DNA of 64,000 bases from Marsupella aquatica (taxonomy: Eukaryota; Plantae; Marchantiophyta). The position numbers were made by a program, and so were the translations under genes. The DNA lies in assembly GCA_973895155.1 (NCBI GenBank), contig OZ316896.1, positions 992,001-1,056,000 of the forward strand. The letters run 5' to 3'. Shown here piece by piece: positions 28,587 through 51,703 of the stretch. Position 1 is the stretch's first letter. Every line of letters starts with the position of its first letter. The notes beneath the pieces are model-generated. The model was not told the origin of the DNA, did not search any database, and saw only the letters and a program-made list of their open reading frames with translations.

Positions 28587-28628
28587 TCCACCCCCTCATA
28601 ACCTGCACATCCTCCGGTATGTGCCAAA

Positions 28629-31600
28629 CTAGTCTTCATCCCCTATATCTTCATCTATTAGTGTCCCTTCTTGATCCCAAGCTACATCGTCAAAGGAAAC
28701 TTGCATCATGTCTCTCCGTTTAAAGAGTTTAACTCTTTTTCCGGCAATAGGAACTCTCAAATCTACACCATCTAGCTCTCGAAGTGAATATGTAGCATTA
28801 TCATGTACTTTTCTCACCACATAAGGGCCAAACCACCTCCTCGAGAACTTCCTGGTGGCACTATGCTGATTGTCTAGTCTACTATCATAGACTAGTACCC
28901 AATCATCTTCTTGAATAGACCTTGGTCTAAGCCTATGCTTCCTATCAAACCTTTCTTTATTCCCCAGCCTTGCCTCCTGCAGTTTTTTTAGTGCTACCTC
29001 AATATCCTCCGAGCGTCACTCAAGTTGTCGGATCCTCAATGCCAATAAGTCTTCCCTACTAAGACCATCTTCCCACGGTAACACACTCCATGTAGGAATT
29101 GTCTCCTCCACTGGCATGATCGGCTTTTGTCCAAACATAAGTTCTGTTGGCATAAAACCTGTTACCGAGCTATGTGTGGTTCGATCTGCCCACAACGCAA
29201 ATGGCAATAACTTTGACCACACATGTATGCTACCATTACAAGCTTTTACCAAAGCCTTAATGATAGGAGAATGCACTCGCTCACTCTTACCATTCCCTTC
29301 TGGATTATAGGCAATTGTCAAGGCAAGCTTTATCTCTAACCTTTCAAAAAACTGTCGAGCCTCTTGTGAATCAAGTTTTCCTCTATCAGCTGTAATCTTC
29401 CCTATGCACCCATAACGGCAAATCACATCTTCAAGTAGAAAATGACATACATTTTCTGTGCTCTTGGTCCTAAGCGCCCTTCCCTCAACTTGATTGGTTA
29501 GGTCTTCCCTTGCTAGAATCACATACCTCATTTGCGAGATCCCAAGAGGTAGAGTTACCAAATCGACAACCCATTTGTAATGCATGGCTAAAGGGTAGGT
29601 GGGATGTAGCCCATCTCGATGCCGAATATTTGAGTAAACTTGACAAGTTTCACAAGTACTCACAAATTGTACTACATCCTTGTACATACCTTTCCACCAA
29701 TATTTTTCCTTTAGTTTGGCAAAAGTAGCCCAAACTCCTCGATGTCCTGCCCATAAGCTTTCATGAAACTCCTTCATCAGTTTTTGTTGCGTCTCTGTAT
29801 CACCAACTACTCGTAGTGGAACCCCTTTGACCTTCTTTGGCTGCTTCCAAAGAACTCCATCCCTCAAAAAGTATCCATAGGCCTTCCTCCTTATCTTCTT
29901 AAATTCTTTGTCAGACCAACCTTCAGATTTCTCCAATGTGCTAAGGTACCGCCCTATATCCACCTATTCACCATCATATAATTCTTCTGAGAATGACTCA
30001 ATTGTCATTGTCAGATTCAACCCTTCTGATTTTGCTTGCGCATTGGAGAAGAACTTTGTACCCACATCTTTTCCTTCCTCTACCATCTCTTCTTCACGGT
30101 AGTATCTAGCTCTAGATAACATGTCGGCCACTTGATTGTCCCTCCCTAATATGTGCTGGAATTCTGGATCTAAAGTTTTGATATAGGCAATCCACCGGAG
30201 CATGGCAATGTCTGTGTGGTACAATTAGCTATTATCCCAAGGAGGGGTAGACAATCGGTTTCGACTACTACTGGTGCTCCAATTAGATAATCTTTATCAC
30301 ATTTGAGTGAAGTTACTATGCCCCACAATTCTCTCTTCAATTGCGGGTAAGCCCGTTGGCAAGTGCTCAAGACTTTTGCCCCAAACTTTACCACACATCG
30401 ATTCCCCTCTTCATCATTATGCCCAATTGCCCAACCAATCCCAATTGGACTTGTATCTACTGTAACAATCACTGGTCGCCTACAATCATAATCAATTCTC
30501 TTCAAAGCTATCATATCAGAAAGTGATTTTTTCAACTTCCTTACTGACATGGTATGCTCTTCCTCCCAAGTAAACTTTTTCCCTTTTCTTAGAAGCCGAT
30601 ATAATGGATCCGCTATATGTACAAAATGCGGGATCCAATGAACATAGAAGACACATGCCCCTAGGAATCTACGAACCTCGGTAGTTGTTTCACATACCTC
30701 CTTCATTTGCTTGATTGCATCCACCTTCGTTGGACACGGCTTCCTCCCATATGGCCCACACAAATGTCCCACAATGAGAACCTCCTTTACCCCGAAGCTT
30801 GATTTCGCCCCAGACAATGTCAAATGGACTTCTTCCAACTTTGTCAAGATCTTATCACAATCTGCAATGTGGTCAGCAACAAACTTTCTACACCCCTTTG
30901 AGTTTTTTGCCTCGTCCTTCTCCTCCTCACTACAACCCTTAATTGGTACATCGTCAATGAATGGCATTGTTATTTCTGGAATGAAGTCTCTTAGTACCTT
31001 GTTCATCCCGCTCATCATATGTGCAACAGAATTTGTTGCTCCCATTGGCAAGGTACACATTCGAAGCAATCCTAGCGGCGTTCGCATTGCAGTTAAATCC
31101 CTTCTTGCAATAGCAAGCTGGAACTGGTCATATCCCGACTATAAATCCCCCATAGAGTATATCGATCTCCCTGCAAATGCATCTGTGAACTCATCCACAA
31201 GAGGACCAATTCCTATATTTTGTATGGTCACCTTGTTGACAGGCTGCATATCTTGAATGAATCGTAATGCTCCAGACTTCTTTGGCACTGTAAACCACCT
31301 ATTTGAGTACGGCAAACATGAAGGTTCCAAGATCCCCATCCTAATTCTCTCCTTCAAAAGTTCTAACAGTTTAGGCAATAGAGCTTTAGGTATAGGAATA
31401 GGCCTCAAATTCCAAGGTACATGCGGAACTGTGAAAATAATCATAGGAGCCACTACCCTCGGATCTACACACCCTATCTCATCTGGTTTGAAGGAAAATG
31501 CTTTACCATGTTTTGATAGCATCTCCCGAAAGCACTTCTCCTCTGCAGGTGTGAGAAATCTTTGATCGCCAATTTTTAACTCCTTCAACTATGCCTCATC

Positions 31601-32104
31601 AAAGGTGTGCCCTATCTTTTTAGGGTCCCTTAAACTTGGTTGCTGCCCAGCATAATCTAGCTTTTCCCCGAAATCAGTAGGTAACGGCAATGCTACTGGT
31701 TTTACCTTCTTTGCTACTGATTCGTACTTTGTCTCCACAAGCACTTCAGGTCTCTCTCTTCCAACAAACGATCTGATTACCTCATATACTCTATGAGAGC
31801 ATATTTTCACCATACTTTGGTCACTCTGTAATATAGACTCCAGGCCTTCTATGGTGTCATCAAAACAAACTTCCTCAAACACTCCTGAAATGTACTCATC
31901 CCCACTCAATTCTCCTCTCCTTCTCAATTCTTTCTCTACAATCTTCACTCTCTTTTTCTCAATTTTTTTAAAGGTTTCCACCTTCATGTACGAAATCAAT
32001 CCCTCTTCTATAAAACCTAAGAACCCATGAGAAAAACCCTCCCCACCTTCTACTTCAAGCGAGAGGTGTTCTACCTTTGTACCATTGTATTCTCGCTCTA
32101 CCAT
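28629..32104 (-). pseudogene. pol (RT-RNase H-integrase) of the gypsy element, with stops and a frameshift
   Basis: RT: LRFIQDMQPVN, LPMGATNS, PFIDD. RNase H: VTVDTSPIGIG, VETDCLPL, NQVADMLSR. Integrase: HESLWAGH..CETC, VVDLV, TADRG, EGNGKSER. No chromodomain at the C-terminus. Confidence 0.92.
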
Positions 32105-34412
32105 GGTACTTCCCCAAAATCCTTAAATTCTGGAGTCACCCTTGGCAATGGTCTCTCCCTCAAGCTGTCTCGATTCCTTGCATGATCTGGACACACGGTT
32201 AAGAATTGTACTGTTCGCTTTCCATCTTTGCTCCTGATCCTGGCATATGATGATCCATCATCCATTGTCTTTGTCTCCATCCGCAATCCCGTTATGTATG
32301 GCATTCCAAGTATAATCGGATAGGTAGCTGACTCTTGGACAAAAAAGTTTTGCCCCTCCTTGATATCTCCTATCGTGATGTTAACATTGGGGCAGGCTCC
32401 CCATAAACTACCTTTAGAATTGTTTGATGCTCTCATCAACCATCCATGCTCCTTGTCGACAGGCCAATCCCCTCTGTCAAACAATTCCTTGGACATGAGG
32501 TTAATTTCTGACCCTGAATCCACCAATGCCACAACAGGTTCTTCCAAGTATCCGATGTGCACCAAGGTTTCCGTAGTGGCTCTAGCCCAATGATTGCGTA
32601 AATAGTGACTCTTTCGAGCTACTTGCTCCTCTTCATCAGCAAATCGCACTCTAGATGATTGATAACATAGAGCCACATTCTCGTCTCCTTCTCCCATGAT
32701 TCCTTGTACGCTCATAGCTTCTGGTTCAACCAAACTTTGACGCTTTCTTTTGATGATATCAATGATGACTTCATGAAACTCTCGTTTCGCAATACCCAAC
32801 ACTTCGCCCAATGTGAAATCCACTTTGCCATTGAGAATCCTCTCCTCCAGCACTTTCTTCAGATCTGTAGCTAGCTCAATGTCGGATTGCAATTTGTATG
32901 TTGGCCCTTTCCCCTTCTCTTTTGACTGATTTCTCCTCCCCTTCATGGAAGACGCTTCATCCATCATTTTCTCTCGAGGTGGAGTTGAATCAGCATGCAC
33001 TCTTTCCTCCCTTGCCGGTCGCTTGGATGGTCCTTCATTGGCCTCGGTTCTCCTCTGCTTGTCTTCTACTAATGCCTCATGTTGACTTTGGGCAATATAC
33101 GCATGCACCGAGAAGGAGTCAACTGGATCATTCCAACCTGTGATTTTTTGAATGGTTTGGCCAGCCTGAGATAGAGATTCTAAGGACATTTTCCCCTTGT
33201 CCATATACCTCTTAGCAAAGGCCACAGCTCGCTTGCTTCTCCTGGTACATTGTTGCATGTCATTTGGGCTTGCTTACACTCATGTCTTGCAGGTTCCACC
33301 TTTGCACCATAGACTGTTGCTTCAACAGATGCCGCTGCATTTGCCGCCGCCATCTCATCCAAAACTTTCTTTATTCCTCCTCGACCAAAGTTGGTCTTTA
33401 TCGGGAGACCAGTTTCCTTTGAGCATATTCTCCCTTCTTTGAAGAAGACCACATTATTTCTCATTGCATCTTTAAAATCTTCACAAGCACTTCGAGCATG
33501 GTCTGTGCTGTCGCACCACATGCATCGTGAGACAAACCCTTCCCGATGTACAGCTTTGGCTTCCGATGATTGACCCTTCTCCTCTAATCTTGTTAGTTTG
33601 ATGCGCAACTCCCTCATTCCTTTCACCAACTCCTCTATGTTTGACTCCTCACTTGATCTTGCTGCAATTGTAGACTTTGGTATTGGCTCCACCCGAGGTT
33701 CTCCCAAACGTCTAGTAGGAGATTTCTTGCTTATCATGATCTTATCTCTCCTCCACTGCCTCTTTGTTAGGAGTGAGACTGCTTCCTCCACATCTTTCCA
33801 ACTGGTCTTCAATCCTCGCTCTTCAGTCGTGTCTTCCAACAATGGCTCCAACATCTCTTGTAATGTAGCATCGGCAGCTTGGAGAAATAACTCGGTTTTC
33901 TCCGCCTCCAAAGTCAGCTTTTCAGTTCTAGACAATTGTGAAAATTGTCTATCAAATTCTCTGAGTAGTTCGTTGGCTGAAAGCCCCTTCTGCGGGCACA
34001 TCACCCATTCTAGAAAGGATCGTTTTGTGACTCGCTCTGAATCCTCCATGAAATATTCATCCTTCAAGGCTCTAGAGAATGTCTCCCAGGTTTCTCCATG
34101 CCTCTCCATCAGCTTCTTGATTTGCTCACGAAGCTCTGGCAAGACGGCAAGCTCAAAGCTTGCAATCATCCCACTTTCAGGTACTTTGCTTAACTCCATC
34201 TCGCGAGTATAGAAATGCAGGTACTTCGAAATATTCCGCCCATCGAATTGATCATTTTTGTTGACAATAGCTTGTAGTGCTTTGGTTGCCAACGCCTCCT
34301 TCTTCTCCATCGCTTGTTGCTCCTTCATGTACAGGTTGAAGGCGTGAAGCATTTGCATGGTTGATGCATCAAACATCATTGACGGTCCTCCTTCTCCTTC
34401 CTCGTTTGTCAT
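32098..34412 (-). pseudogene. gag-protease of the gypsy element (one frameshift near 33260)
   Basis: ORFs 33180-34412 (FDGRNISKYL gag start; CMWCDSTDHARSAC zinc knuckle) and 32098-33258 (aspartic protease ALVDSGSEINLM ... IILGMPY). Confidence 0.88.
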
Positions 34413-34445
34413 TTTATAGTGCGTAGGTTCTCCAGCCCCGAATCT

Positions 34446-34463
34446 TTCACGTCGAGTTCACCA
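34446..34463 (-). promoter_or_regulatory. Primer-binding site complementary to the tRNA-Trp 3' end
   Basis: The plus strand reads TTCACGTCGAGTTCACCA versus the plant cytosolic tRNA-Trp 3' end as I recall it, TTCACGTCGGGTTCACCA (1 mismatch). It lies 4 nt from the LTR edge. Confidence 0.75.
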
Positions 34464-34467
34464 AATA

Positions 34468-36210
34468 TGTCATGAAGTTCGTGGGCGATGTCGGGAAAGC
34501 CCGGGCTTCTGTCTGTCGAAAGAACAATGCGCTACGACGTGCTAATAAAACACTACGATCATTACCCAAAATCGCTCAATTGTCATGGGAACAACGAATG
34601 GAATCGGGGATGAAATGATCATGGTATATGCCGACTCCCCAAAGTTTCTGATGATGAAGGCTCGAAACTCAGTTTTTTGGCGACATATCACCCAAACATT
34701 GCAATCTATACTAAAATTAGGCCTAGGAACTCTATTGAGGTCCATCTTGTAATTCAGAATCACCGTACAAGCTTTTTGAACATAGGAAATTCACCTACGG
34801 TTGTCAATTTCCTTTGTACCATATCAAACAAGTCAAGTACTTACTATCCTATCATCCCTCAAAGGTTCGAGTCAAAACTCTATCTTCATCAATAGGTACA
34901 AAGAAAAATGGTGGACCTATCTAGATTGCAGGCTATGAAGACCCTGTCATCGTCACCATACTATATATCTCACTTAAAGATAGATATACCCTCGAAACTT
35001 TTTCCTAGGCATGACATAGCTTCTTGTCTATTTCCAGGAAAAAATTTCAAATATGCATCTTATTCTAGGAAAATATTACAAGCAATATTCAAACTCAGAA
35101 AAATATGGTTCTATTTGAGCATAATCTAAACCTTCAAGTCATCATAACTTTCTAGTATTATACCAAAATCAAGTGATTCCAAAAGCAAACTTGGTGTGCT
35201 CATCAAGGTGATCAAAGTTAGAATACTATTTCCCTAAGAAAAAATATCATAATGATTTCCTATATAGTATAACCTTTACTATTTAATAACTTTCTAACAA
35301 TGTCGCATCTCTAGCTTCCAAGCACATTCTATGAATTCTTATACTTCCCACACTATTCTTGCACATAAGTTTGGAATAACAAAGAAAACTCACCATGCCA
35401 CCCCCAAGGGGCAGACCTCTTATTTATAGTGCTTTGGAGGGGTAATGACTCACCCCTTTGGTACACATGGTCCAATAATATTTGAACATGTAAACAACAA
35501 GGTGTTTGGATGCTATTGGGTATGTTTCCATGCTTATCCTCCTTTCGACACCTAATTGGCCATGTGTTTGATTCTAAATGGACATGCAACCATGCAAGGC
35601 CTTTTTACACATGTGTGCCACGTATCTCTATATATTTTTCTATGTCACAAATCTAGTGGAAAAGTAAAGTCACCTAGTAGGCCTATACTCTAGTTTATGA
35701 TAATTATTCCTATAGCCCACAATACTTTATTTAGAAGTGCTTTGTCGTCACTCTAACCCATCATAGGATGCCTAAATTTTGTAACTAGGCATGATGAATC
35801 ACCAAACTAGCTACTATGTTAAAACATAAAAACATATAACCCACTTATGTGCATATGTAAGCGTGGGTAAGAACAAAGGTTGAGCGGATTCTTCAACCTC
35901 CCGAAGGAATCGCACACCAAAGTGATGCACGATGAATTGTCGAAAATGAACTTTCTCCATAATCCGAAACTGAAATTCAACGTGATTTGGAAATCCAACT
36001 GGCGCCCCGTGCACTCCATCCATTGTTGCTTTCTTGCCTTAGAGTTGTTGCCTCCTCCTCTCGTTCCTCGTTTCTTTATGAATCGGCAACCCGCTACAAG
36101 CATAGGTACCCGACTTATGGTCTTATTTGTCATCTTAAGTCGAGATGTTGCAAACCCAAAATATACCCGTGTAACTTAGGTGTACTATTTGCACCAAAGT
36201 TACCACGACA
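34468..36210 (-). repeat. 5' LTR of the minus-strand gypsy element
   Basis: TG...CA ends with a short terminal inverted repeat, adjacent to the PBS. About 20 substitutions (counted by eye, almost all transitions) versus the other LTR over ~940 bp. Confidence 0.88.
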
Positions 36211-37011
36211 GCGTGAGGTCACCCATCCCGAAAGTGCTCCCAACTACGAGCACGAAGTCACCCATCACAAGCGCAAGCAGGCGCGAGGTCGAGATCACCC
36301 ATCCGGGGCTATTCCGGATCGTGAGCGCGAGGGGAGGCACGAGGTCGAGCGCGAGGAGGTCACCCATCCCGGGGCTATTCCCAGCCGCAAGCGCTTAACT
36401 GGCAAGTTCTCATCCCACCTTGTGTACACACAAGTTTTCACAACTTGTTGTTTAGATTCAAGCGCCAGGGGACTTTATACACTTTTCGGTTTGCTTAGAG
36501 CCTTGTTTCGGGCCAAATCAGACGCTCTTTAGAGGTTTTTGATAGTTCTGAGTTCATCTAAATACACAGATTGAACCAATTGTGCATGGTTTCTCATCTA
36601 TAACATTGGGACATCATGAAGCCTATTATGAAGGCCTTTCATTGAACATTATGAATATTTGTTTGATCAATATGTGATCACTCTTGGTGTGGAGAGTTAG
36701 TGTTTGACTATTCTTGTTGATTGGATCCTTTCCACACTTGTTTCCTGTTTATGCGCCATGTTGGTTTGGCGTGGGCACTTGATTCTATAGGAGTGATCCG
36801 GGTTTGCGACCAGACATTCTAGTTGTGCTACGTATTTCTCTCCTGGTGATGTTGGAGTGATGCCCAACACACCATGGTGAGTGCTTGTGTTGCTGACAGG
36901 GACAGGTTGCCCTTAGGGTTAGCATATAGATTAGGTTAGGTTGGTCACCACGGATTCTTCTGGTGCTGCTGGTTACCCGATGGACGATGGACCGGTTTCA
37001 CTTGGAGTGGG

Positions 37012-38370
37012 GTGCAGTTTCGGCCAGCGGTATTGGTAGCAGTCAGCAATGCAGCTTTAGACAGTGATTCTGACGAGGACTCAATGACCAGTTCTCCTCG
37101 TCATCAGGTGGTTGCACCTTTGTTGTGGGATATGGACGAGATATACGGGGCTACAAAGGGCCCACGACGATACTCTGGTGCAGTTGGCACAATTGATCTG
37201 GATGACTTCATCCAGGAGTTTGATACGTGGTGCGATATGCAGACATTGCGTAACGCCACATTGTTTATCCCTTTCATAGCATGGAAGGGATTATTTCAGC
37301 ATTTGGAGGGGCCACCCATGGATGACTACCATGAGTTTCGGAAGGCTCATTTGGTTGAGATTGAGGCATGGAGGCAGCATTGGTCACCTAATTACGTGTC
37401 CATCACCTATGGCACTAGTGCGGCTGCCCAACCCATTGCCACAGCTGCTGCCTCTTCTAGCAGCACTAGCCAGAGTGGCACACCATCCACCAGTAGCACT
37501 CTAGCAGCATCCACCGCTACTCCTGCCAGTGTGATTGTGATAGGAACTGGAGTTGCGCCAACATTTAATCATGTGGTGGAATTCTTTGAGGTACTAAAGC
37601 AGAACTATCAGGGTGTGAGAACTGATAAGTTGAAGGGTCTCCAGGAGTTCCAGCGCAAGACTAGAGAGAGTCTACGTGAGACATACACTCGTATGCGCAG
37701 ATTGATCACTGTCACCAAGGGAGTGATAGAGGCTCAAGCAGTCCAGTTTTGGTATGCAATTATGGACAGAGAATTGCGACGCAGAGTGAGAGATGTCACT
37801 CTGCTTAGGGATGCAGATCCCACATTAGCAGTTTTTTTCACCCTTTCTGAGCGTATTGAGCTCAATATGGTGAATGAGAAGGTGGTGACTTTCGGATTTG
37901 CCAAGGAAGCACCAAAGGCTGCATCTACATCTACACCACAGCCTACTACATGGAAGAGCCAGAGGGAGAAGCCTACTACATGAGAGTCTACCAGCCAGAG
38001 ACCTGTGCCCTCTTATGCTGGACAGCAGTCAGGATGTTGGACCTGTGGTGGGGATCATGCACAGAGATATTGCCCAGATCATAGAGGATCAGGGGGAGCA
38101 TCAGCACCTGATCAGCGACAGTATGATCATTGTGGAGCTCCTGGACACACCAAGGATAGGTGTTTCTCACTCCACCCTGAGTTATGGAGGGGAGGATCCC
38201 GTACACATGATCAGGGAAGAGGAGGAGGAGGTAGAGGTGGTGGACGTGGTCATGGCATGCCACATGCAGGGAAACAGGGAGGTGACCCTGCCCCTGCTGT
38301 AACCATAGATCCAAAGGATGCTAAGATTGCTCAATTGGAGCAACAGCTAGCTGCCATGGCTAGTTCCTAG
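37012..38370 (+). pseudogene. gag with two zinc knuckles and RGG tract
   Basis: YSGAVGTIDLDDFIQEFDTWC; ESLRETYTRMRRL (major-homology-like); knuckles CWTCGGDHAQRYC and (C>Y)DHCGAPGHTKDRC. In-frame TGA at 37981. Confidence 0.8.
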
Positions 38371-39351
38371 GTGAGACCTACTTCTGCTGATGGACCTTCC
38401 ACATCCCATGGTCCTTCCACATCTTATGGAGCTGATGGAGATCTTGCCACCATGGGATTCATGTGTGGCACTGCACATATTGATGCATCAACAGCTTTGA
38501 CATGTGGGGCAACCAAAGCTCTTGAGCCCTGAGGAGCAGTAGTGGAGCTAGATCCATAGAGGGGGGATGCACATCGGCAGACAAAGCTTCCTCAGTCTTT
38601 TACATTGTTAAAGACAGTTCAGACTGCCTCTATGAACCCGATTTGGACAAACCCTGGCGTGGGTAAGTTGGTAGAATCCGGTAGTAATACAGTAGGGATG
38701 ACAGGTACCCTGTTGGGGGTGGCTACTGCCATAGTACGCACCCCATTATTTTCAGCGACAGACATGCTGAACTTGGGAGTTGGTCCTGCAAAAGTGTTCA
38801 GATTGGCAGCTACACTCTATGAGGACACTCCCGTTGTTACTTCCCATGCAGAAGCAGCTTGTAGTGTTGAAGCAGTGAAGACCATACCACCTACTACTAC
38901 TAGTGAGACATGGCATGCAGCAGCAGCGAGGTTGGTGGATTTACTAGCACGCCCTGCATTTGAGAGGACTAGGTTTAAACCTAGTGTTGTGTTATTGGAT
39001 AATCGGAGTGGTATCTTCCCTAAATCCACACCATTGTCTTTGGCAGCATTCAATGGTATAATTGCTGGACCTGATGATTTGATTGAGGGTAATGCGCATG
39101 CAGCCGATGTTCCACCATTGGAGGAGTCTCATGAGGAGCACATCATGCAAGGATTACCTGTTGGTAGTGTTGTGCCACCAGTGTGGGGCACTGCACATGC
39201 CTTGCCACAGGCAACAGCACGATTGGTACATGATGCATGGCATCATGCTTTTACACCACAGTCAAGAGCAGAGCAGTCTCTTGCAGATGAACCTGTGACT
39301 CTTTCACCATTGAATACCACTCCTATTGCTTGGCAATATCCACCGGAGGGT

Positions 39352-40296
39352 ATTTGTTTGTTGGATCTTTTTGGTGGGATTAGCACTGGATTGGCTGCTG
39401 TTCTTTAGGCAGGAATTCTTGTGCGTCGTTATTTGTATGTGGAGACAGATGAGACAGCACGGAGGGTCTCATTGCGACATGTGGCTATGTTGGTGGATAG
39501 ATATCCACAGTTGCTGCCAGTGGATGCTGTTCGTGGTTATCAGCATGCACTACCTGCTGATATTTCATTGTTGGGGGCGGATCATCTACATCGTGTTGGC
39601 CCCATTGATTTGGTGATTGCTGGTTGGCCATGTCAGGGCCAATCTAGAGCTGGCATTGGGCATGGACTTCATGATCCACGCTCTACATTGTTTTGGGAGA
39701 TGTTACGGGTGCTGTGTCATCTCCAGCTACATCAGACACAGTCTCCAGCATACATTTTGGAGAATGTGCCATTGTTAGGTGACGATCGTAGTCGGATTGT
39801 TGCCAGTGTTCACCAGGTGAGGTCTTGGATTGGACCTGCTGTGTTATTGGATGCTGCATGTGTGGGTTCTCGTACACATCGTTCATGCTTGTGGCAGACT
39901 AATTTGATCCCATGTGAGGTGCTGAAGCGCGCATTTGACAGCATTCCACGCTCACCAGCCTTAGTGGTGGATGATATTTTGGATCCAAGGCGTCGGGCAC
40001 AGGGTGTGACCCAACCTGATAGACCTCCATTGGCAATGGTCAATGCAGTTGGGCGCCCACGTTGTGCATTACCCACTCTTGTAAGCCACTCTGCTTCATA
40101 TGCATTCAGAGCAGGTGGCTCTAGACTTGTGTGGGACACAGCTCTCCAGCAGTTAGTGGAGCCTACTGCTGATGAGAGAGAGCGTGCTATGGGATTTTTG
40201 ATTGGCACCACTGCAGTTACCTCTGTGTCAGAGGGTTTGCGGCGCCAGGTTCTTGGTCAAGCAATGGACCTGAATTGTTTGACTTGGATTATCAGC
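39352..40296 (+). pseudogene. C5 DNA cytosine methyltransferase domain (DNMT3-like) inside the retrotransposon polyprotein
   Basis: Motifs in canonical order: I LLDLFGGISTG, II YVETD, III ADI, IV DLVIAGWPCQ (PCQ at 39628-39636), V DPRSTLFW, VI YILENV (39760-39768), VIII HRSCLW (RxR eroded), IX ERERAMGF, X VLGQAMD. One in-frame TAG at 39406. Confidence 0.92.
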
Positions 40297-40536
40297 TTGG
40301 GAGACTTAGCTGAACAGTTGCGGATGCGCTCTGCTAGAATTACTGATTGTCCCTTGGTGAGCTTGCGGTCCACTGAGACAATATTGACCACAGTTGGGGG
40401 CGAGTAGACAGTCCATGGACCTATGGCAGGATTGGCCAAGGCTGGACAGATTGTTGAGCAGGAAGGGACTGCTCAATCTACTGCTAAATAGCAATCATCG
40501 GCTATCTCTTCTACCCTACAAAGAGATATTAGGGAT

Positions 40537-42060
40537 TTGGTGGAGAGTTGGGAATCACAGCTTGGCCCTAAGTTAACAGGGGAGGAGAGACGTCGCATGC
40601 ATCGATTCCTGAAGAGTTATTGGAATTGTTTTGCATTCAGCATGAAGGATTTGGGGATACTAAAGGGCCCTGGTATTCAGATTGAATTGGCTAGTGATGC
40701 GCCAATCTTTCGTAGACCATACCGTTATAGTGACATGGAGAGAGCTCTGATTCAAAGCAGAACTCAAGATTTGTTGGAGGCTGGATTGGTGGAGATTTCA
40801 TATGGGGAGTATGCATCTGCCACAGTGATGCCAGCCAAGAAGGATGTGCATGGCAATTACACAGATAGGCGCATGTGTGGTGATTACAGACCTATTAATC
40901 GCCAGACAAAATCTAATCGATATGCCATGCCCACACCTGAGGAGATCTTTGATGCTGTGGGGCATGCAAAGGTTTTGAGTTCATTGGATCTGAGGGCAGG
41001 GTACCATCAGCTTCCAATTAGGCATGCTGACAGGTCCAAGACAGCATTCTGGGGGATTGATTCTTATGGCAAAGATCGTTTGTATCAGTGGTTATTCTTA
41101 CCATTTGGGTTGAAGAATGCACCAGGTGAGTTCCAGAGAGTCATGGATCGAATCCTTGCAGGTTTGGATTTTGTCAGATGTTATATTGATGATATTTTGG
41201 TCTATTCTTCTACTGTGGAAGAACATCAACAGCACTTGCAGATTGTGTTGGAGAGATTGAGAGCACATGGGTTGAAGCTCCATCCTGGCAAGTGTAAGTT
41301 CTTCCAAGACCAGATTGAGTATTTGGGCCACACTATATACCCAGGGGGATTGGATGTACAGTAGACTAAAATGGAGGCCATTACACAGATTCCTTGTCCT
41401 ACTGATGTGAGTAGAGTTCGTGCATTCTTGGGATGGGCGAGCTACTACAGGAGGTATGTTAAAGGATTTAGCCAGCTTGCTAAACCTTTGACCATACTCA
41501 CTAAGTTGGATCAGGAATGGATTTGGGGTGATGACCAGGAGCATGCCTTTCAGGAGTTGAAGCAAAGGTTGGCATCATCGCCTATTTTGAGAAGACCCAT
41601 TTAAGGCAGACCATTTTAGCTACACACTGATTGGAGTGGAGTAGGACTTGGAGCAGTGCTGACTCAGAAGGATGATGAGGGGAATGAGTTTGTTGTGGCT
41701 TATGCTAGTAGATCAAACAATTCAGTAGAGGCTAAGTATAGCTCTTATGAGGGAGAGTGTTTGGCAGCAGTGTGGGCTGTTGCACACTTTCATTGCTACT
41801 TGTTTGGTAACCCCTTCACCTTGATCACTGATCATCAGCCTCTTAAGTGGTTAATGGAGTCTGACAAGCTTAGAGGGAAGCTTGCACGATGGGCATTGTT
41901 GTTACAAGAGTATGATTTCCAGGTGGTGCATAGGCTTGGAAAAGTGAACTTGGATGTAGATGGATTAAGCCGCAATCCATGTACCAGTCAGCAAGATGAG
42001 ACTGGAGCCAGATGGCATGATGAGTCAGATAACAAGATGGTGCCAGGATGGCATGCATCT
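40537..42060 (+). pseudogene. Reverse transcriptase and RNase H
   Basis: RMCGDYRPIN, LDLRAGYHQ, LPFGLKNAP, YIDD (41182-41193), LHTDWS, YEGECLA, TDHQPL, DGLSR. In-frame stops at 41362 and 41602. Confidence 0.95.
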
Positions 42061-42362
42061 GCCTTTCTTTGTTGGTGCCAGCATACAGTGGATCTGTGGA
42101 CTCTACCTCATTGGATGGAGTGGATGATGAGTCTTCAGATGTGGATGTTGGTGAGGTAACTTCTGGACAGCAAGATATTCACAATGATGTGACAGTGTTG
42201 GAATATCTGCGCAGTGGTTCTATTGTTGGCAGTGTTGATGCCAAGGAATGTGACAGGGTTCTACAGAGAGCCAAGAGGTTTCGATGGGAGGGAAACCATC
42301 TTTTGAGAGTACTGCATGATGGTAGAGTGTTGGTGGTCCCAAAACTATCATAGAGAGTACAT

Positions 42363-43616
42363 TTGGTGCGACATGTGCACGAGGAGTTGGGTCACTTTGG
42401 TGTAAAGTGCACTTATAGCTTGCTGGAGACACAGTATTGGTGGCGTGGTATGCACACTCATGTCCAGCAGTTGATAGCTAAGTGTGTGGTATGTGATAGA
42501 GTGAGAGCATCATTTAATGCTCCCACTCCCCAGTTGCACCCGTTGCCGATCATGGGTTTGGGATATCGTTGGAGTTTGGATTTTGCTGGTCCATTACCTC
42601 TTACCCAACGTCATAATCGGTATGTTTTGGTCATGGTGGAGCACTTCTCCAAGTGGATTGAGCTAGTGGCATTGCCAGATAAAGCCAGTGGAGGAGTTGC
42701 TGCTACATTTTTGGATCGTGTACTCAATCATTTTGGAGCACCAGTTGAGGTGTTGACTGATCAGGGAACTGAGTTCCGTGGAGAGTTTGAGAGTTTGTGT
42801 GAACAAGCTCTGATTGATCATCGTACTACCTCTCGTGATCATCCTGAGGCAGATGGATTAGCTGAGAGAGTTGTGCAAACTGTGAAGAGAGGATTGCGTA
42901 AGTATGACTTGCAGGTTGGTCATCTGGGAGATTGGGATCTCCAGCTATCTTGGTTAGCTATGGGCTACCGTTTCAGTCGGCAATCATCACTTGCATCCTT
43001 CTCACCTTACTTTTTGCTCTATGGTAGAGAGCCAGATTTGCCAGCAGCTATTCGTTGTGATGCTGCATCAGTTGTGAACTTGGATGATCCTGATGTTTGG
43101 GTCAAGGTGTGTTCAGAGAGAGCACAGGTATTTCAGCGAGTGATGCCCATGGCTTTCAACAACCTTGCCATTGCCCAACATCGTGGTACTTTGAGGTATG
43201 CCACTATTCGTGGAGGAGGTTACCGTGCAAGCATTCGGCGATTTCATCCTGGTGATTATATTTATTTGCAGCAGACAGCACCCACGACACTTGATGTGAT
43301 CGCAGGCCGGATAATCTTACGTGTGCGTGAAGTGTTGCCTTCTGGTGTCCTGATGTTGGAGGGACGCGATGGTATGGTTTGGAAGGATCATGTGCGCAAC
43401 TGTGCACCATGTCACCTTCCCAACATTGATGGTACAGTAGATCCAAGCTTGGCACATGTTCGTGCTAACTTGAAATGTATGTTGTGTGGATCTGCTCAGG
43501 GAGCAGCTACTATGTTGATTTATGATAAGTGTTTTAGAGGATGGCATATGTCATATTTGACACCACCATTGCAGGTGATTCCTAGTGGATCATGGTTGTG
43601 TCCTCAGTGTCGGTGA
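42363..43616 (+). pseudogene. Integrase with C-terminal PHD finger
   Basis: HHCC (HEELGH...CVVC); D,D,E (SLDFAGP, TDQGTEF, GLAER); PHD at 43476-43613 CMLC...LI(C>Y)DKC..GWHMS(C>Y)LTPPL..IPSGSWLCPQC. Confidence 0.93.
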
Positions 43617-43925
43617 AGCCGACTAGTTATCATTTGTGTTCTCTTGGCAGATATGGATTGCAGGTAGGTGATCGATGGGGCTCACTTGCATCCGGCCTCC
43701 TGATCTTCACACCTAAAAAGGTGTATATCAACCTTGTAAAACTCATGGCTAGCTAGAGTTAGGGGACCTTACTCCCAGCTAGGGGGGCGATTGTGGGTTT
43801 TGGACATGTGTGGACATGAGTTCCACTTGTATTCCATTCTCTTGTGTTTGTGATGTGGCAGTGTGACTATGTCTGGATGTATGTGACAAGCGATGTATGT
43901 TGTGTAGCAATATGTATGCGCACGA

Positions 43926-46895
43926 CAACCATTGTTGAGTCGGCTGAGGGCTGGGAAGACTTTGACCAAAAGATGAAAGAGGAGTTCCAAGCGGAGGATG
44001 TTGATTGGGTCACGCAGGCTACCTTCTTGGATTGGGTGAATGACAAGAACAAGAAGCTGAAGGGGCCGCAAGAGCTTCTAAGGGAGTTCAAGAGAAGGGT
44101 GTCTCAATTACCGAAGAGGGATGTGAGGATCATTGAGTTGCAGCAATCGATGCTCTTCTTGAGGGCAGCTGATGAGGACCTTCGAGAGGAGCTTGAGAAT
44201 GCGATGGAGCTGTTGGAACCTTTGAGAGTTACCTTGTCAATCAATTGGAACCAAGTTGAGAAAGTAGTGTCGAAAGTGAGCAATCAACATTGGAGGCGAG
44301 AGCTGGATAAAGAAGTGACCACTCTCGACCTAAGGCCGCCGAAACCAATATTGAGGAAAGGGAAGCAAGAACCAGCGAGGGATGAGATCAAACCAATGGT
44401 GGATGATCTCACGGAAATGATGTAGAACCTGAAGATATTGGTGGCACATGCGGTTGAGAATCCAAAACCGAGGGTTGCAAGTGCTCTCGAGAGGAAGCGA
44501 GAGATGCAAAGTTGGCCATACATGTGGTGCAACAGCAAAGAGCATGACAAGCAGGAGTGCCTGTGAGGGAAGTTGTGGATAAGGGGCTGATCGAGTTCAT
44601 CAATGAAGTTGGTCAGAAGAAGATCTATCATTTGCTGATACTGAGGAGCCAATTCCGTTCAACTCCAACAAGGGAGGCATGAAGGCTTTGGCCAAGAAGC
44701 GAGTTGAGAAGTTGTCCTCTTCACACCTGGAAGAAAATGTTTACAACGTGGAGTTGGATGGCCCCACGATGGAAATGGATAAGTTTTACAACCACTTGGC
44801 GGATCTGGTGCGAGAGAGATCCGGATGGAGTGATTCAATGCTGATCAATGCGATAATTGTTGAGGTTGGGGCTAGTTGGGATGCCTCGATCAAGTCAAAA
44901 AGGAAGAAGACCAACAAGGATGACACTCCATCTCAATCAGGGGAACTAGAGAGGCGGGATACGCGAGACAAGGAAAGGAGGGTCAGGTTCAAAGATGAGG
45001 AAATGAGTGAGAAAGAGCCGAGAAAAGGGAAGCCAATCAAAAAGGATCCGGGATGGGTGCTAGGCAGGGATGTTGACCAGGCTATGTACCCGGAGGTTGT
45101 AGCTGAGAAGTTCTGGAGCCAACAGGCTCAAGGGTTTATCAATGCCGAGTTCGTTGGCAGCATGAGGCTGGAGATCCAGGAAGCGATCTTGGAGAGATCC
45201 AAGAGGAAAGAGGATTTACAAAGAGGGCCCTCACACCTTGATGGAGGAGGTTGGCGAGATAGAAATAGGGAGTTTTTGAACCTATATTGTTGGGGTGTCT
45301 ATGGGTTCAGGAAGAGAGCTTGCTGACCCCAAAGAGTCAGACTTGGGGAAGCCAAAGAGGGTCAAGTTCCTTGGAGGGGAGCTCATGGATTGTGATGAGT
45401 TCATCAGTGCCTATTCGGAGCTAGTGGACTTGGATGATGAGTTCTTTGATGCAAAAGAGGAGCTCATGGGAGCCGGAAGTGAAGCTGAGTCTGTGGCAAA
45501 CAGGGAACCGATTGAAGGGGAAGAGCGAGAAGGCATTACTATGCAATCAAGAACCATTCATGTCATGGGCTTGATGAAAGGGAACGCTGATGCTTACCGA
45601 GATGGATAGTGGGCTCGAGCAAGTCCGAAGAGCGAGTGTCAGCTAGAAGGAATGGAAGGGAAAGTGCGGACGCTCATTGATACTAGCTCAGAGATCAACT
45701 TGATGGATCCAAAGGTGTTTCAAAAGGGGAATTGGCTGATGGATAATGAGTTGCTTCGAAGTGTGAATTCGGTGAGTTTGATGAAGGACTATCTTTGGGG
45801 CGGATGTCCAAATGTGATGGTAAAGTTCGGGAATGTCAAGCAGGCTTGTAACATTTTTGTTCACGAGCACTTGTCGTTTTCGGTGATACTGGGCATGCGC
45901 GTTCATTACTGAATGGAGGATGGAGACAAAGGTTTTTGACGACACTACCTTCATGGTGAAGGTTCGAGGCAAAGATGGCAAGGAGGTGGTTCAGTTTCCG
46001 GCTGTTCTACTGGGAAATGAGAGGAACCAAAAGTAGTTGCAAGATCCAATAATGGCAGAAGTTGGCATTGCTATGGGTGAGAACCGAGATGCTAAGATGG
46101 ATCTAAGAGTAGAGTTCAAAGGAGAGCCAATTGAGGACCAAAAGATGGGGAGTCTAGTGTTCAAGGAAGAGTGTTACTCAAGAGAGCTACTAGACATTGG
46201 GAAGTATCTAAATGACTTTGGGAAGCGACTAAAATGGGGTGGTGATGAGTTCAAAGGCATTCGAGTGAATTATGATAAGTTCATTCTTAGAGAGGGCTAC
46301 CTTGGCGGAAACCTAAAGGCCCCATGCTGGTACCGATGAGAGTTATTGATTCTAAGGATGACCAGAATCGGATTTTGGAGGAAATCTATGATGTTGAGGT
46401 CAAAGGAGGTTCGAAATCAATAAAAGCAAAGGTCTTTGAGTAGATCTGGAAGAAGTATTGGTGGCCAAATTTGTATTGGGATGTTCAAGAGTATGCTAAT
46501 AACCAAGGGATCCGTTACAACTTGAAGAGGCAGATTCAAGAGCTTGGAGTCTCGTTGGTCCAAGCATGAGTTTCTTGCGAGCTAGGTTAGGACTAGTCGA
46601 GTAGCTAGTCAGTTTTGGGAGTTTGTGAGTTGAGGAGTGTTTTTCCATCAAATTTTGAGTAGATAGCCACTCAAGGAGTTGAGCTTGACAAGTTAGAGGT
46701 AGTGGCCCGCCGTAGGGTCAGCTACCAAACTCTTGCGAGCAAGCTTACTTGAGGGCATCCATTGTAACCATTGAGAGAAAAGTAAAAAAATAAAGGAGTG
46801 AGAGTTTGCTCCAAAAAGTGTTTGTCGCGTGTCCTAGTCGCAACCAAAAATGCGTAGTTTACCCAAGGAGCCCCTAACTTCTAGTCCTCGCGACA
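43926..46895 (+). mobile_element. Degenerate, internally deleted gypsy element (gag-protease, integrase fragment, partial 3' LTR)
   Basis: gag WEDFDQKMKEEF..FLDWV; protease TLIDTSSEINLM; then a jump to pre-integrase sequence LLDIGKYL. The LTR part ~46545-46895 ends CGCGACA and matches ~47835-48184. Confidence 0.8.
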
Positions 46896-47005
46896 ACATC
46901 ATCCCATGTCGGCGAGGGTCTCTAAGATTGGAGGCTGTCGTAAAGTTCTATTGTCACTTGGAGCAATCTGAGGCACACCAGCATATCTCAAGAAGGGCCT
47001 CTGAG

Positions 47006-47292
47006 CTCGGAGGGTTGACTATCAAAAATCTTAGGAACCACGTGCGATCCAAAATAGGTATTTTTGATAGAAATTAACTAAATTTTTAAAAAGCATAGGA
47101 GGCAAAAGAAGGTATTATAAACTCATGTTTATAGAATATTCTCTAATATATACTTTTTATAAAATAAAATAGGTTATTAATATTGAAAATGGAGAATATT
47201 CTTGGAATATTTTCTTTATAAAATAGGTCTATTTATATTAGGCTAGGATCGCACGTGGTACCCCAAAATATACACTTAGTTAACCCCTCGAG
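47006..47292. mobile_element. MITE with CTCGG(A/G)GGGTT TIRs and 8-bp TSD
   Basis: Ends CTCGGAGGGTTGACTA / TAGTTAACCCCTCGAG. TSD CCTCTGAG at 46998-47005 and 47293-47300. AT-rich interior. Confidence 0.9.
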
Positions 47293-47378
47293 CCTCTGAG
47301 ATCTGGCCAACAATAATCTCAGAGACCCTCACCGAGTTTTGCATGTCGGCGAGGTGGTTGACATTGGCGATCTGACAT

Positions 47379-50300
47379 TGTCGTGCCAAAACATTTTGGC
47401 TTAGGAATGGCTTTTATATAGGTTGATGGACGAGACGTCGTTGGTCAATCGCGAGTATGCTAACTCAAAAAAGCTACTTGGTTGGTTGGAGATAAGGCTT
47501 GATGTTTGGGTGACTCATCATCGCCAGACTTGGTGTTTGGGTGAGCCTCGCTGGTGGAAGTTGGCTCGGGCAAGAAAGTTGGTTCCGAAAGCTACTTAAA
47601 GCTTGAGCTGAGGCTCATTGGGGTTTTGTGCTATTGGATCTGTTTGGCTGTTTGTTGGGCTATCTATGAGTTTGTTTGTAGGTTTGGCTCTTGGTGCTGC
47701 TAGTCTGTTGTTTCATCATTCACTGCGGGTGATGGTTTGTTGAGATTGATCGAGGAGGTTTTGGTGTCTAAGAGGTGATGTGGATTTTGGATTTGGTGGC
47801 GGTTTTGAGCTTTGAGTCTTGGGCCTTCCAGCATCAAGTCTTGTCGGTCTAGGCCCAAGTTTCTTATGAGCTAGAGTGCGATTAGTTGAGTAGCTAGTCA
47901 ATTTTGGAGGTTTGTGAGCTAAGGAGGAGGGTTTTTCAGTTAATTTTGATCAGACAGCCACTCGAGGGGTTGAGCTTGACAAGTTAGAGGTAGTGGCCTG
48001 CCATAGGGTCAACCACTAGACTCTTGCAAGCAAGTATACTCGAGAGCATCCATTGTAATCATTGAGAAAAAGTTAAAAAAATAAAGGAGTGAGAGTTTGC
48101 TCCAAAAAGTATTTGTCGCCTATTCCAATCGCAGCCAGAAACGCATAATTTACCCAAAAAGCCCCACTTCTAGTCCTTGCGACATTGGCAATCATATTGG
48201 AGAATCTTTGGGGCGATTGGTTGAGATGGGTGGCTATGACAAAGTCAATCGGATTTTGGGTATTGTCATGTCGATGATGAAAGCCATAAGGAAGGAAGAG
48301 CTCGAGGCGGAAAGGGCGAACATAGAAGCAAACAAAACTATTTGGTGTCTCTAGGAGTTCTGAAAGAGAATGGGCAGTTTGATGGGAGGAATACATGACA
48401 AGCTACCTGAAGTCTTACTTGACAGAGGCCATTGTCTACAAGATGGACAAAGAAGCGGCGGTGAAAGAGTTCATGGTGCTGGTCGAGAAGGAGTTGAGTT
48501 TGATGGTGCGAACCATCATTAACTTGACTGAGAGTTGGGAGGACTTTGATCAAAAGGTGAAAGAGGAGTTCCAAGTGAAGGATGTTGATTGGGTCACGCA
48601 GGCTACCTTCTTGGATTGGGTGAATGACAGGAACAAGAAGCTTAAGGTGCCGCAAGAGCTTCTAAGGGAGTTCAAAAGGAGGGTGTCTGAGTTACCAAAG
48701 AAGGATGTGGGAATCATCAAGTTGCAACGCTTGACACACTTCTTGAGGGCAGTTGACGAGGACCTTCGAGAGGAACTTGAGAACGCAATGGAGTTGTTGA
48801 AACCGTCAAGAGTTACCTTATGAAACGATTGGAACCAAGTCAAGAAAGCGGTGTCAAAAGTGAGTAATCGTCACCAGAGACAAGAGCTGGATAAGGAAGC
48901 GACCACTCTTGACCTAAAGCCGCCGGAACCAGCATTGAGGAAAGAGAAGCAAACCGGTGAAGGAAGAGATCAAACCAACGGTGGATGATCTCGCCATAAT
49001 GATGCAAAACCTGAAGATTTTGGCAGCACATGCGATTGAGAATTCAAAGCCAAGGGTTGCGAGTGCTCCCAAGAGAAAGTGAGAGATGCAGGGTTGGCCA
49101 TGTATGTGGTCCAACAGCAAGGAGCATGATAAGAGGGAGTGCCTGGACCTGAGGAAAGCTGCGGATAAGGGGCTGATCAAGTTCATTGGTGAGGTTTGTC
49201 AAAAGAAGATATCGTTTGTTGATACTGAGGAGCCGATTCTGTTCAACTCCAACAAGGGACTAGGCATGAAGGCTTTGGCCAAGAAGCAAGCTGGGAAGCG
49301 AGTTGAAGAGGCGTCCTCTTCACACCTAGAGGTGGATGGCCCCGTGACAAAAACGGATAAGTTCTACAAGCGCTTGGCTGATCTTGTTCGAGAAAGATCC
49401 GGATGGAATGATCCAGTGCTGATCAATGCGATAATTGTCGAGGTTGGGGCTAGCTGGGATGCTTTGGTCAAATCAAAGAGGAAGAAGACCGATGAGGATG
49501 ACACTCCATCTCAATCAAGGGAATAAGGGAGGCGGGATACGCGAGATAGGGAAAGAAGGATCAAATTCAAAGATGATGAATCAAATGGGAAAGAGCCGAT
49601 TAAGGAGAAGCCGAGCAGAAAGGATCTGGGATGGGTGCTAGGTAGGGATGTCGACCAGGCTATGTACCCGGAGGTTGTAGCTGAAAAGTTCTAGAGCCAA
49701 CAGACTCAAGGGCTTACCAATGTCGAGTTCTTTGGTAGCATGAGGCGGGAGATCCAGGAAGCGATCTTGGAGAGATCTAAGAGAAAGTGTATTTACAAAG
49801 AGGGCCCTCACACCTTGATGGGGGAGGCTGGTGAGTCAAAAATAAGAAGTTTTTAAACCTATAGTGTTGGGGTGTTTGTGGGTTCCGGAAGGGAGCTTGA
49901 TGACTCCAAAGAGTCATGCTTGGGGAAGCCAAAGAGGGTCAAGACCCTAAGAGGGAAGCCCATGGGCTGATGAGTTTGTGGATTCCAATTGCAAGCTCGT
50001 GGACTCGGATGATGAGTTCTTTGATGCGGAAGAAGAGCTCATGGGGAACGAAAGTGAAGCTGAGTCCATGACAAATAGAGAGCCGGTTGAAGAGGAAAAG
50101 TGAGAAGGCACTACTGCGCAATCAAGAACCATTTACGTCATGGGCTCGATGAAAGGGAGTGGCTATGCTTATAGAGATGGATACTGGGCTCGAGCAAACT
50201 ATCCAGAGAGTGAGTGTCAGCTCGAAGGGATGGAAGGGAAAGTGCAAGCTCTCCTTGATACCGGTTTGGAGATTAACTTGATGGATCCAAAGGTGTTTCA

Positions 50301-51190
50301 AAAGGGGAATTGGTCGGTGGACAACGAGTTGCTTTGGAGTGTGAATTTGGTGAACTTGATGAAGGACTATCATTGGGGCGGATATCCGAATGTGATGGTA
50401 AAGTTTGAAAATGTCAAACAGACTTGTAACATTTTTGTGCATGAGCACTTGTCATTTCCGGTGATACTGGGCATGCCATTCATTACAAAATGGAGGATGG
50501 AGACAAAGGTTCTTGATGACACCACCTTAATGGTGAAGGTTCAAGCAAAGATGGCAAGAAGGTGGTTCAATTTCCAGCTGTTCTACCTGGAAACGAGAGG
50601 AACAGGAAAGGGTTGAGGACTGAGTGTGCCGACTCTAGTCTAGGTCCTGAAAACAACATGGCACTTTGCTGAAAGGAGTGGATTGGCGAAGTGCTCGTTC
50701 CTTAGCTCCACATGGGGAAGGAGACACGATGGATAATGGAGAGGATGAGCCACTCGAAGGTGTAGAATCTAACTTGGAAAGGGACAACTTGGAGGTAGAG
50801 TTGGAAAGGCATTACTCATTTGTGGTCGTGCTTGTATACTCGGATACCAAATACAAGACGATTGACAAGAAGGTGAAGCCGACAGCGATGCCTTTGCCAG
50901 ATGATGCGATGGAAGTTATGGATCGAGCAAGATTGGAACCGAGGTTGAGGCCAACTGATTGGATAGGGCATAAGTTTACTCAAGAAAGTTTGTCAAGGCT
51001 TAAGATCGGTTCGGATGGGTTACAAACTAAGGTGGAACAGGTAGCATTTCAAAACATGATAATGGAGCATGACAAGGCATTCTCATTTTTGATTGACGAG
51101 ATTGGTTGTGCGGATCCGAGTAAGGTGACACCGATGGTCATCTTCACTGTCCCTCATGTTCCGTGAGATTTGAAACCGATTTTGGTTGCA
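47379..51190 (+). mobile_element. Degenerate gypsy element (5' LTR 47379-48184, gag-protease, start of pol), 3' truncated
   Basis: LTR TGTCGTG...TGCGACA followed by a TTGGC PBS-like start. Its gag closely resembles the 43926 copy. Protease ALLDTGLEINLM; pre-RT segment YKTIDKKVKP...PMVIFTVPHVP homologous to the minus-strand element. Confidence 0.85.
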
Positions 51191-51409
51191 TCGCTTCCAG
51201 AAGAGTCCTCTGAACACTGAAAATATAGTGGGCATAGTCCTTTTTCAAAGAACAAGTGAGACCTTAATTAGAATTAGTCAAAAAGCTGTTTGGACCCCAT
51301 GATTAAGCCCGTGACAAAATAAGCTCTTGTATATTATGTTCATTGGAGCACATTTATAGAGCTCTCTTACTAGAATTTACTTCCCAAGTCAAAGGAATAG
51401 TCCCGGACT

Positions 51410-51703
51410 CTCGGGGGGGTTGACTATCAAAAATCTTAGGAACCATGTGCGATCCAAAATATGTATTTTTTTATAGAATTAACTAAATTTTTAAAAAGCG
51501 TAGGAGGCAAAAGAAGGTATTATAAACTCATCTTTATAGAATATTCTCTAATATATGTACTTTTTATAAAATAAAATAGGTTATTAATTAATATTGAAAA
51601 TAGAGAATATTTTTGGAATATTTTCTTTATAAAATAGGTCTATTTATATTAGGCTAGAATCGCACGTGGTACCCCAAAATATACACTTAGTTAACCCCCC
51701 GAG
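51410..51703. mobile_element. MITE, second copy of the 47006 family
   Basis: Ends CTCGGGGGGGTTGACTA / TAGTTAACCCCCCGAG. TSD CCCGGACT at 51402-51409 and 51704-51711. Near-identical to 47006-47292. Confidence 0.92.

Follow-up and report, generated by a model that had tools for sequence, protein, structure and literature searches.

The described system closest to the element reported here is KnitGypsy-Dnmt3 of the alga Klebsormidium nitens, which, according to the sections of PMC5890265 covered, unites Gypsy domains with an intronless DNMT3-type domain under purifying selection and has direct repeats of the DIRS type (A1, A2 and two B repeats around A2). Split direct repeats and a carried DNA methyltransferase (DNMT) are also found in SymbioDIRS-Dnmt3 and PAT/DIRS elements, which use a tyrosine recombinase; the SymbioDIRS enzyme methylates CG in yeast (PMC5890265). 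Retrotransposons combining a writer with a reader are already described as well: the EpiLTRs/DAM-LTRs of Cymbomonas and Euglena are, like our element, long terminal repeat (LTR) retrotransposons with a DNA methyltransferase and a chromatin reader, here a DNMT4-related DNMT, DAM and a chromodomain, and in the part of the preprint covered their authors call them distinct from the streptophyte Gypsy-DNMT3 elements (bioRxiv 10.64898/2026.05.21.726589). A Ty3 polyprotein with a PHD finger is known from Chlamydomonas Gypsy-7a_cRei, although no methyltransferase is among the domains in the figure legend (PMC9940879), and PHD-transposon fusions are numerous (bioRxiv 2021.11.30.470311). Here we analyzed a stretch of 64,000 nt from the liverwort Marsupella aquatica (contig OZ316896.1, positions 992,001 to 1,056,000, forward strand; hereafter the window), which contains a Ty3/gypsy element with a DNMT between gag and reverse transcriptase (RT) and a PHD finger behind the integrase.

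The family of this element shares with KnitGypsy-Dnmt3 the Gypsy domains and the DIRS-type split repeats. However, KnitGypsy-Dnmt3 carries its DNMT in the open reading frame (ORF) of the RT and has been described as a lineage-specific acquisition of one alga, whereas here the hosts are land plants, a PHD finger is present and a stop codon separates the DNMT from the RT/RNase H frame. The main text of PMC5890265 mentions neither PHD nor Marchantia and the sections covered contain no end mechanism; PMC12344493 and the 2026 preprint, in the parts covered, treat streptophyte elements only by citing PMC5890265. The preliminary description of the locus, made from the letters alone, had ascribed PHD-bearing integrases to the Selgy lineage. 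This attribution found no backing: the REXdb main text mentions neither PHD nor methyltransferase for the Selgy and Phygy lineages, and a literature search for Selgy with PHD was empty. DNMT-bearing gypsy elements and the repeat type are known, while for the land-plant range, the pairing of DNMT3 with PHD, the leaky stop and the circular integration route discussed below no report was found at title and abstract level in the literature searched, mostly open papers.

We consider it reasonably likely that the window holds a decayed copy of a Ty3/gypsy family of non-seed land plants in which ORF1 encodes Gag, protease and DNMT, ORF2 is reached by stop readthrough, and the DNMT would be packaged and would methylate the element's own DNA before insertion. 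A single plus-strand frame of the window copy runs from gag, which starts at ATG 37084 or at ATG 37132, over two zinc knuckles and the methyltransferase to the RT and RNase H (Table 1). The expected C5-type methyltransferase between gag and RT is confirmed, with FGG..G, GWPCQ and ENV in canonical order (Pfam DNA_methylase, E 3e-11), and the proposed Pfam check also recovered RT, RNase H, integrase (Integrase_H2C2, E 1e-13; rve, E 7.5e-14) and the PHD finger that indeed ends the integrase. The gag matched no Pfam family but is 63–80% identical to the gag of main-group relatives. The Ty3/gypsy order gag–protease–RT–RNase H–integrase is present as well, with the protease deleted in the window copy and detected in relatives as weak matches to Asp_protease_2. 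A single frame interrupted only by point stops, as first described, holds from gag to RNase H; beyond it the integrase and PHD finger use another frame, and both the missing protease and a conserved stop at 40489 depart from that picture. Likewise, the proposed gag–DNMT–RT polyprotein is correct in its order, but the DNMT belongs to ORF1, after the protease and ahead of a stop of leaky type.

The methyltransferase is, judged from profiles and a structure model, of the DNMT3 type, with its nearest solved relatives among DNMT3 enzymes. Its motifs I–X are canonical and unpermuted, and the catalytic PC, ENV and RxR are present in eight relatives; no uninterrupted relative in the alignment has lost PCQ, ENV or RxR. 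Searched against the PDB, the family profile placed DNMT3A/B/C (DNMT3A, E 8e-20) far above bacterial enzymes (M.HhaI, 3e-8) and DRM2 (2e-4). In a Foldseek search with a model of the DNMT domain of locus L047, all 34 listed rows were DNMT3A/B/C (best E 9e-14), so that DNMT3 entries led both the profile and the structure search for a C5-methyltransferase fold. The domain is under purifying selection: the ratio of nonsynonymous to synonymous substitution (dN/dS; Nei–Gojobori method, synonymous sites near saturation) was 0.09–0.20 in nine pairs between subfamilies or intact copies, compared with 0.09–0.21 for the protease and 0.02–0.10 for RT and integrase where computable. Two points weigh against this picture of a selected DNMT3-type enzyme. 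The model is of modest quality (pLDDT 64, pTM 0.71) and represents L047 instead of the window copy, and two close, decayed copy pairs gave dN/dS values of 0.49 and 0.86.

We then examined how widely the arrangement occurs. A search for longer homologues retained 61 proteins from 7996 scored candidates; the named relatives comprise 15 Marchantia polymorpha proteins, one of Calypogeia fissa and two Sphagnum rows, labelled hypothetical or unnamed protein at NCBI. A profile search with the family methyltransferase added two Closterium rows among the best 120 of 234 matches; no Klebsormidium-labelled sequence was present among the 61 homologues or these best 120 matches. From metagenomes 109 loci were confirmed and 80 kept, while viral contigs yielded phage-type methyltransferases only, distant at 26–37% identity. 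Where the domains are present their order is gag–protease–DNMT–RT–RNase H–integrase, with L076 and L077 as exceptions, and all 28 sufficiently long loci have a PHD finger behind the integrase, 24 of them at standard spacing; a tblastn search with the damaged PHD finger of the window found no relatives, but an intact query recovered them. The sought further copies with the DNMT at the matching position thus exist, and L047 has intact frames: one ORF of 1369 aa with protease and DNMT and a second of 1047 aa with RT, RNase H, integrase and PHD, a single TAG standing between them. In a quick DNMT tree, composed of element and phage enzymes with six phage-type methyltransferases from viral contigs as outgroup, the window DNMT falls into a 12-row clade with Marchantia, Calypogeia and Sphagnum proteins (SH-aLRT 99). 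For 23 elements, the trees of RT and DNMT agree in 12 of 20 splits and show one well-supported conflict (L043).

These data bear on whether the window copy acquired its DNMT by a one-off host capture or a nested insertion, for instance of a DNA transposon. We rejected this as exceedingly improbable: although the window copy carries many stops, dozens of relatives spread over several genera have the DNMT at this very place, in frame, without introns and under selection, and the trees are largely congruent. The DNMT is therefore, as first proposed, an integral domain of a land-plant Ty3/gypsy family, in which PHD co-occurs. Against an integral domain speak one contig of the host family that skips 39128–40420, i.e. 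the DNMT domain; the recruitment of all loci by a DNMT query, which leaves DNMT-less members outside the locus sample; and the composition of the trees, none of which held host DNMT3 or Klebsormidium sequences.

Next, we analyzed the junction between DNMT and RT in those 54 of 80 loci in which no more than 800 nt separate the end of the DNMT from the start of the RT, leaving out the other 26. A stop was observed at this junction in 53 of the 54 loci, with linker lengths of 390–573 nt, and Marchantia and Calypogeia proteins end at the homologous place, 95–99 residues past the last DNMT motif. The window copy contains 10 stops in its main frame (37981, 38368, 38530, 38557, 39406, 40405, 40489, 41362, 41602 and 41617); nine correspond to a sense codon in at least one of five compared relatives, the exception being 40489. 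ORF1, i.e. gag–protease–DNMT, is bounded by this conserved stop rather than by decay. Behind it we found a CAR codon in 48 of the 54 loci and in every subfamily. When the 48 loci that align at the window stop were regarded, 47 had TAG or TAA, followed by CAA in 42; the remaining six loci have a stop and the exact CAR-YYA, three of them being broken-frame copies. The exact CAR-YYA follows the stop in seven of 54 loci and in the window: the window and four loci have TAG-CAR-YYA, three further loci TAA-CAR-YYA, and the main group CAR-YYC. By comparison, CAR-YYA follows six of 3033 stop triplets on the plus strand of the window.

UAG-CAR-YYA is the readthrough signal of tobacco mosaic virus (TMV), in whose replicase the upstream product exceeds the polymerase product (PMC2754532, as far as covered), and the window copy carries this stop context; unlike in TMV, CAA-CCC stands behind the stop in the largest group of relatives, and readthrough is here predicted from the context. 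We consider it very likely that ORF2 (RT–RNase H–integrase–PHD) is reached by such readthrough, by which the DNMT would become part of the abundant product carrying Gag and protease. Alternatively, ORF2 could be expressed by termination and reinitiation or from its own transcript, the DNMT still belonging to ORF1. The main group, with its non-canonical third codon CCC and an ATG six bases past the stop, also fits reinitiation, and early Met codons occur in L048 (position 5) and L050 (position 14). However, ORF2 of three subfamilies has no Met ahead of the conserved block leading into the RT, its first Met standing at 117 in L047, 48 in L003 and 36 in the window, and the CAR codon is retained in each subfamily, so that we regard this route as quite unlikely. 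Besides the main group, several observations count against readthrough at a conserved stop. L032 has no junction stop and the junction frame of L043/L044/L046 is broken; the 54 loci represent about five subfamilies, including the same insertions sampled repeatedly; and although the variants listed for contigs of the host family (from four public sequencing runs) include none at 40482–40497 between variable flanks, they include none at the private stop 40405 either, which makes this a weak control. P0031–P0033 have DNMT and RT in one ORF, unlike the stop-bearing loci.

For the role of the DNMT, de Mendoza et al. proposed methylation of complementary DNA (cDNA) before insertion for DIRS elements (PMC5890265, sections covered). 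Going by its position and retention, a packaged DNMT most likely methylates the new cDNA of the element before insertion, and we favour such pre-methylation of extrachromosomal cDNA, which may serve camouflage, protection or self-restraint, as its probable role. The enzyme may instead be kept for acting on integrated copies or the target site, for a non-catalytic role in binding DNA or RNA, or for a restraint that benefits the host, roles that the same authors named in the sections covered (PMC5890265). The Klebsormidium KnitGypsy DNMT did not methylate in yeast, a result graded inconclusive by the authors (PMC5890265) which speaks for such roles and against pre-methylation; the CpG depletion of the element (observed/expected 0.24–0.42 versus 0.85 in a host exon) is compatible with methylation from any source. 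On the other side, the catalytic residues are retained in every uninterrupted relative aligned and the DNMT is encoded in ORF1, where the particle forms. Taken together, we consider these other roles possible but improbable. A further point against a joint writer-plus-reader system, as first suggested, is that DNMT and PHD belong to separate ORFs: with the PHD attached to the integrase, there is no need for writer and reader to work jointly, and coupled action is not implied.

We also investigated the ends of the element. In relatives the left repeat A (about 335 nt, starting with TG) lies about 1.4–1.8 kb upstream of gag, and the right repeat B (about 115 nt, ending with CA) follows a polypurine tract. 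Main-group right ends were B-nn-A(-B) in six loci and B alone in twelve, and the B-nn-A joint was also observed in L047, L050 and L043/L046. Target site duplications (TSDs) of 4 bp are exact in seven of 10 two-ended copies, with a one-base mismatch in two and a two-base mismatch in one. The ends A...B or A...B-A-B exclude an ordinary paired-LTR structure, so the initial classification as LTR retrotransposon stands for the Ty3/gypsy domains but not for ordinary LTRs; TG...CA ends, TSD, polypurine tract and primer site are nevertheless present in relatives. In the window copy no paired LTRs were found, and its right end is B. Membership in DIRS was rejected as well: the family has an rve (DDE) integrase and TSDs, in contrast to the tyrosine recombinase of SymbioDIRS and PAT/DIRS elements.

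The sequence adjoining the 5' A on its inner side can pair with a site in A itself, roughly 30 nt downstream of a TATA-like box. Three subfamilies show this complementarity with differing sequences: in 11 of 20 main-group loci it covers 10–12 of 12 nt at one position, in L047 it is exact over 16 nt, and in L043/L046 it covers 11 of 14. Tf1/Tcn1 and TAR elements are known to prime themselves (PMC6317226, part covered); tRNA genes were not found in the window. From the polypurine tract, the primer complementarity and the TATA-like box we infer that the true LTR is B-nn-A, by which the A|B joint would be two joined cDNA ends; at the B|A joint stands the palindrome CA-nn-TG. At the A|B joint, L038 has extra letters and L052/L053 retain primer-site letters; the latter are rearranged copies with an internal inversion and without integrase, and the TSD of L052 is still exact over 4 bp, which is what the insertion of an aberrant circle would leave behind.

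In the simplest model, which we hold to be probable, the integrase uses the internal palindrome to open a circle or dimer. Foamy virus integrase similarly cuts the palindromic joint of a circle (PMC1180852, part covered), but its cut at the LTR–LTR junction restores linear DNA, whereas the proposed cut inside the LTR would permute the insert. Opposed to this, A...B-A-B could arise by ordinary linear integration with rearrangement or by a PAT/DIRS-like route. The repeat layout is of the DIRS/PAT type as defined by the 2018 authors in the sections covered (PMC5890265), and B-only copies can come from recombination between B repeats. We nevertheless consider this fairly unlikely, as no tyrosine recombinase family is among the Pfam matches of the intact L047, TG/CA ends and 4-bp TSDs indicate a DDE integrase, the polypurine tract precedes B whereas the left end is A, and the joints carry end-joining scars. 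Two counts weigh against the cut at the internal palindrome and self-priming: three of the 10 TSDs are imperfect, and in nine of 20 main-group loci the best 12-mer match lies elsewhere.

In the proposed course of events, the readthrough stop would lead to packaging of DNMT at Gag-like amounts, and the packaged enzyme would methylate the new DNA ahead of insertion. Self-primed reverse transcription would give a linear cDNA bounded by B-nn-A, whose two ends would be joined to form a circle or a dimer. By cutting CA-nn-TG inside the LTR the integrase would create a permuted insert: two-LTR circles would yield A...B-A-B, while A...B would result from one-LTR circles, linear DNA or later B-B recombination, from which the B-only copies may stem. 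The PHD finger would tether the integrase to chromatin and, by analogy with PHD1-type fingers, may bind unmethylated H3K4. Two-LTR circles are usually held to be dead ends. Only tentatively do we go further and picture an old green-lineage Ty3 clade, live in liverworts and mosses including Marchantia, whose DNMT3 at Gag stoichiometry methylates circular cDNA, whose integrase cuts inside the LTR with two-LTR circles as the sole replication-competent route, and whose PHD finger puts the pre-methylated copy in silent chromatin; we hold this doubtful. If readthrough is true, the DNMT would be abundant in particles, and if the ends are read correctly, the family is a DDE-integrase element integrating via circles. 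Search tools for paired LTRs could miss it, and DNMT gene counts in bryophytes may be inflated by such elements. Retrotransposon-borne DNMT3 is extended from one alga to land plants, including Marchantia polymorpha, and the benefit that a transposon has from encoding a methyltransferase, a question dating from 2018, can now be tested in a model plant for which methylation mutants exist.

The window copy itself is a dead element because of its stops (one of them after motif I), the frameshift, the damaged RxR of motif VIII (its second Arg is gone but kept in eight of eight aligned relatives), the protease deletion (about 147 aa compared with the relative P0002) and the loss of two zinc-binding Cys in the PHD finger. 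Its 5' end is cut off by a neighbouring element: the leader starts where the LTR of that neighbour ends and repeat A1 is therefore missing. Across contigs of the host family the element is represented over its full length by numerous variant copies, with loose ends at 39019 and diverse loose ends at 43927; no RNA run was among the 17 runs listed, which speaks neither for nor against expression.

Table 1. Features of the DNMT-bearing element in the window
Feature	Coordinates	Strand	Remarks
5' leader, truncated	36210..37083	+	starts at LTR end of neighbouring minus-strand Ty3 element
gag, two CCHC-like knuckles near 38035-38165 (second damaged)	37084..38370	+	stops 37981, 38368; translation
gag-protease linker	38371..39351	+	aspartic protease of relatives deleted in frame at 39018/39019
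DNMT3-type C5 cytosine methyltransferase (by profile and model), motifs I-X in canonical order	39352..40299	+	stop 39406, motif VIII damaged
Conserved in-frame stop, TAG-CAA-TCA context (predicted ORF1/ORF2 readthrough site)	40489..40497	+	motif PMC2754532 (part covered)
Reverse transcriptase	40492..41361	+	Pfam RVT_1, E 1.5e-33
RT connection and RNase H	41365..41976	+	Pfam RT_RNaseH, E 7.6e-35; stops 41602, 41617
Integrase, H2C2 finger and DDE core	42033..43450	+	Pfam, translation; frameshift near 42,070, stop 42351
C-terminal PHD finger (two Cys lost) and final stop	43476..43616	+	Pfam PHD, E 2.7e-5
Polypurine tract	43781..43790	+	identical tract ahead of repeat B in relatives
Terminal repeat B, right end ...CA	43791..43927	+	BLAST to repeat B of L075

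A second architecture was observed in P0035, P0036, P0039, P0045, L076 and L077, where the DNMT lies between RNase H and integrase (in L076 and L077 ahead of the integrase, and after RNase H where RNase H is seen). The members with mapped order form one 23-row clade (support 99). Several of them contain after the PHD finger a domain resembling adenine methyltransferase (in L076 a weak match to Pfam MethyltransfD12, E 0.006), and these elements may combine DNMT3, PHD and DAM. In addition, P0129, a protein on a 2.4-kb contig labelled as Obscuribacterales bacterial metagenome-assembled genome, matches the L047 domain at 94% and probably stems from a plant or algal element that was misbinned.

Several further features surround the element. 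At its left, 27361–36209 on the minus strand, lies the second Ty3 element (gag, protease, RT, RNase H and integrase by Pfam) with LTRs that are 97.5% alike; its left LTR contains a short insert at about 28300–28560 that resembles a miniature inverted-repeat transposable element (MITE) with an 8-bp duplication. At the right, 43928–51200 holds two decayed copies of another Ty3 family, 81–90% alike and about 4.6 kb apart, and the gag that directly follows 43927 belongs to the first of them, which was the insertion target of the DNMT element. An AT-rich element of about 290 bp with short inverted ends occurs in two copies (47009–47294 and 51414–51705, 94%) and is likely a MITE. A 477-aa ORF in a GC-rich stretch (20271–21704) has no Pfam match and probably comes from another mobile element. 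Host genes were found at 12053–14012, where the predicted product resembles a long remorin (nearest named matches, from Sphagnum, Ceratopteris and Juglans at 29–41%, carry PF03763), and at 53700–61100, a multi-exon gene for a DEAH-type RNA helicase (Pfam DEAD weak, OB_NTP_bind E 1e-16).

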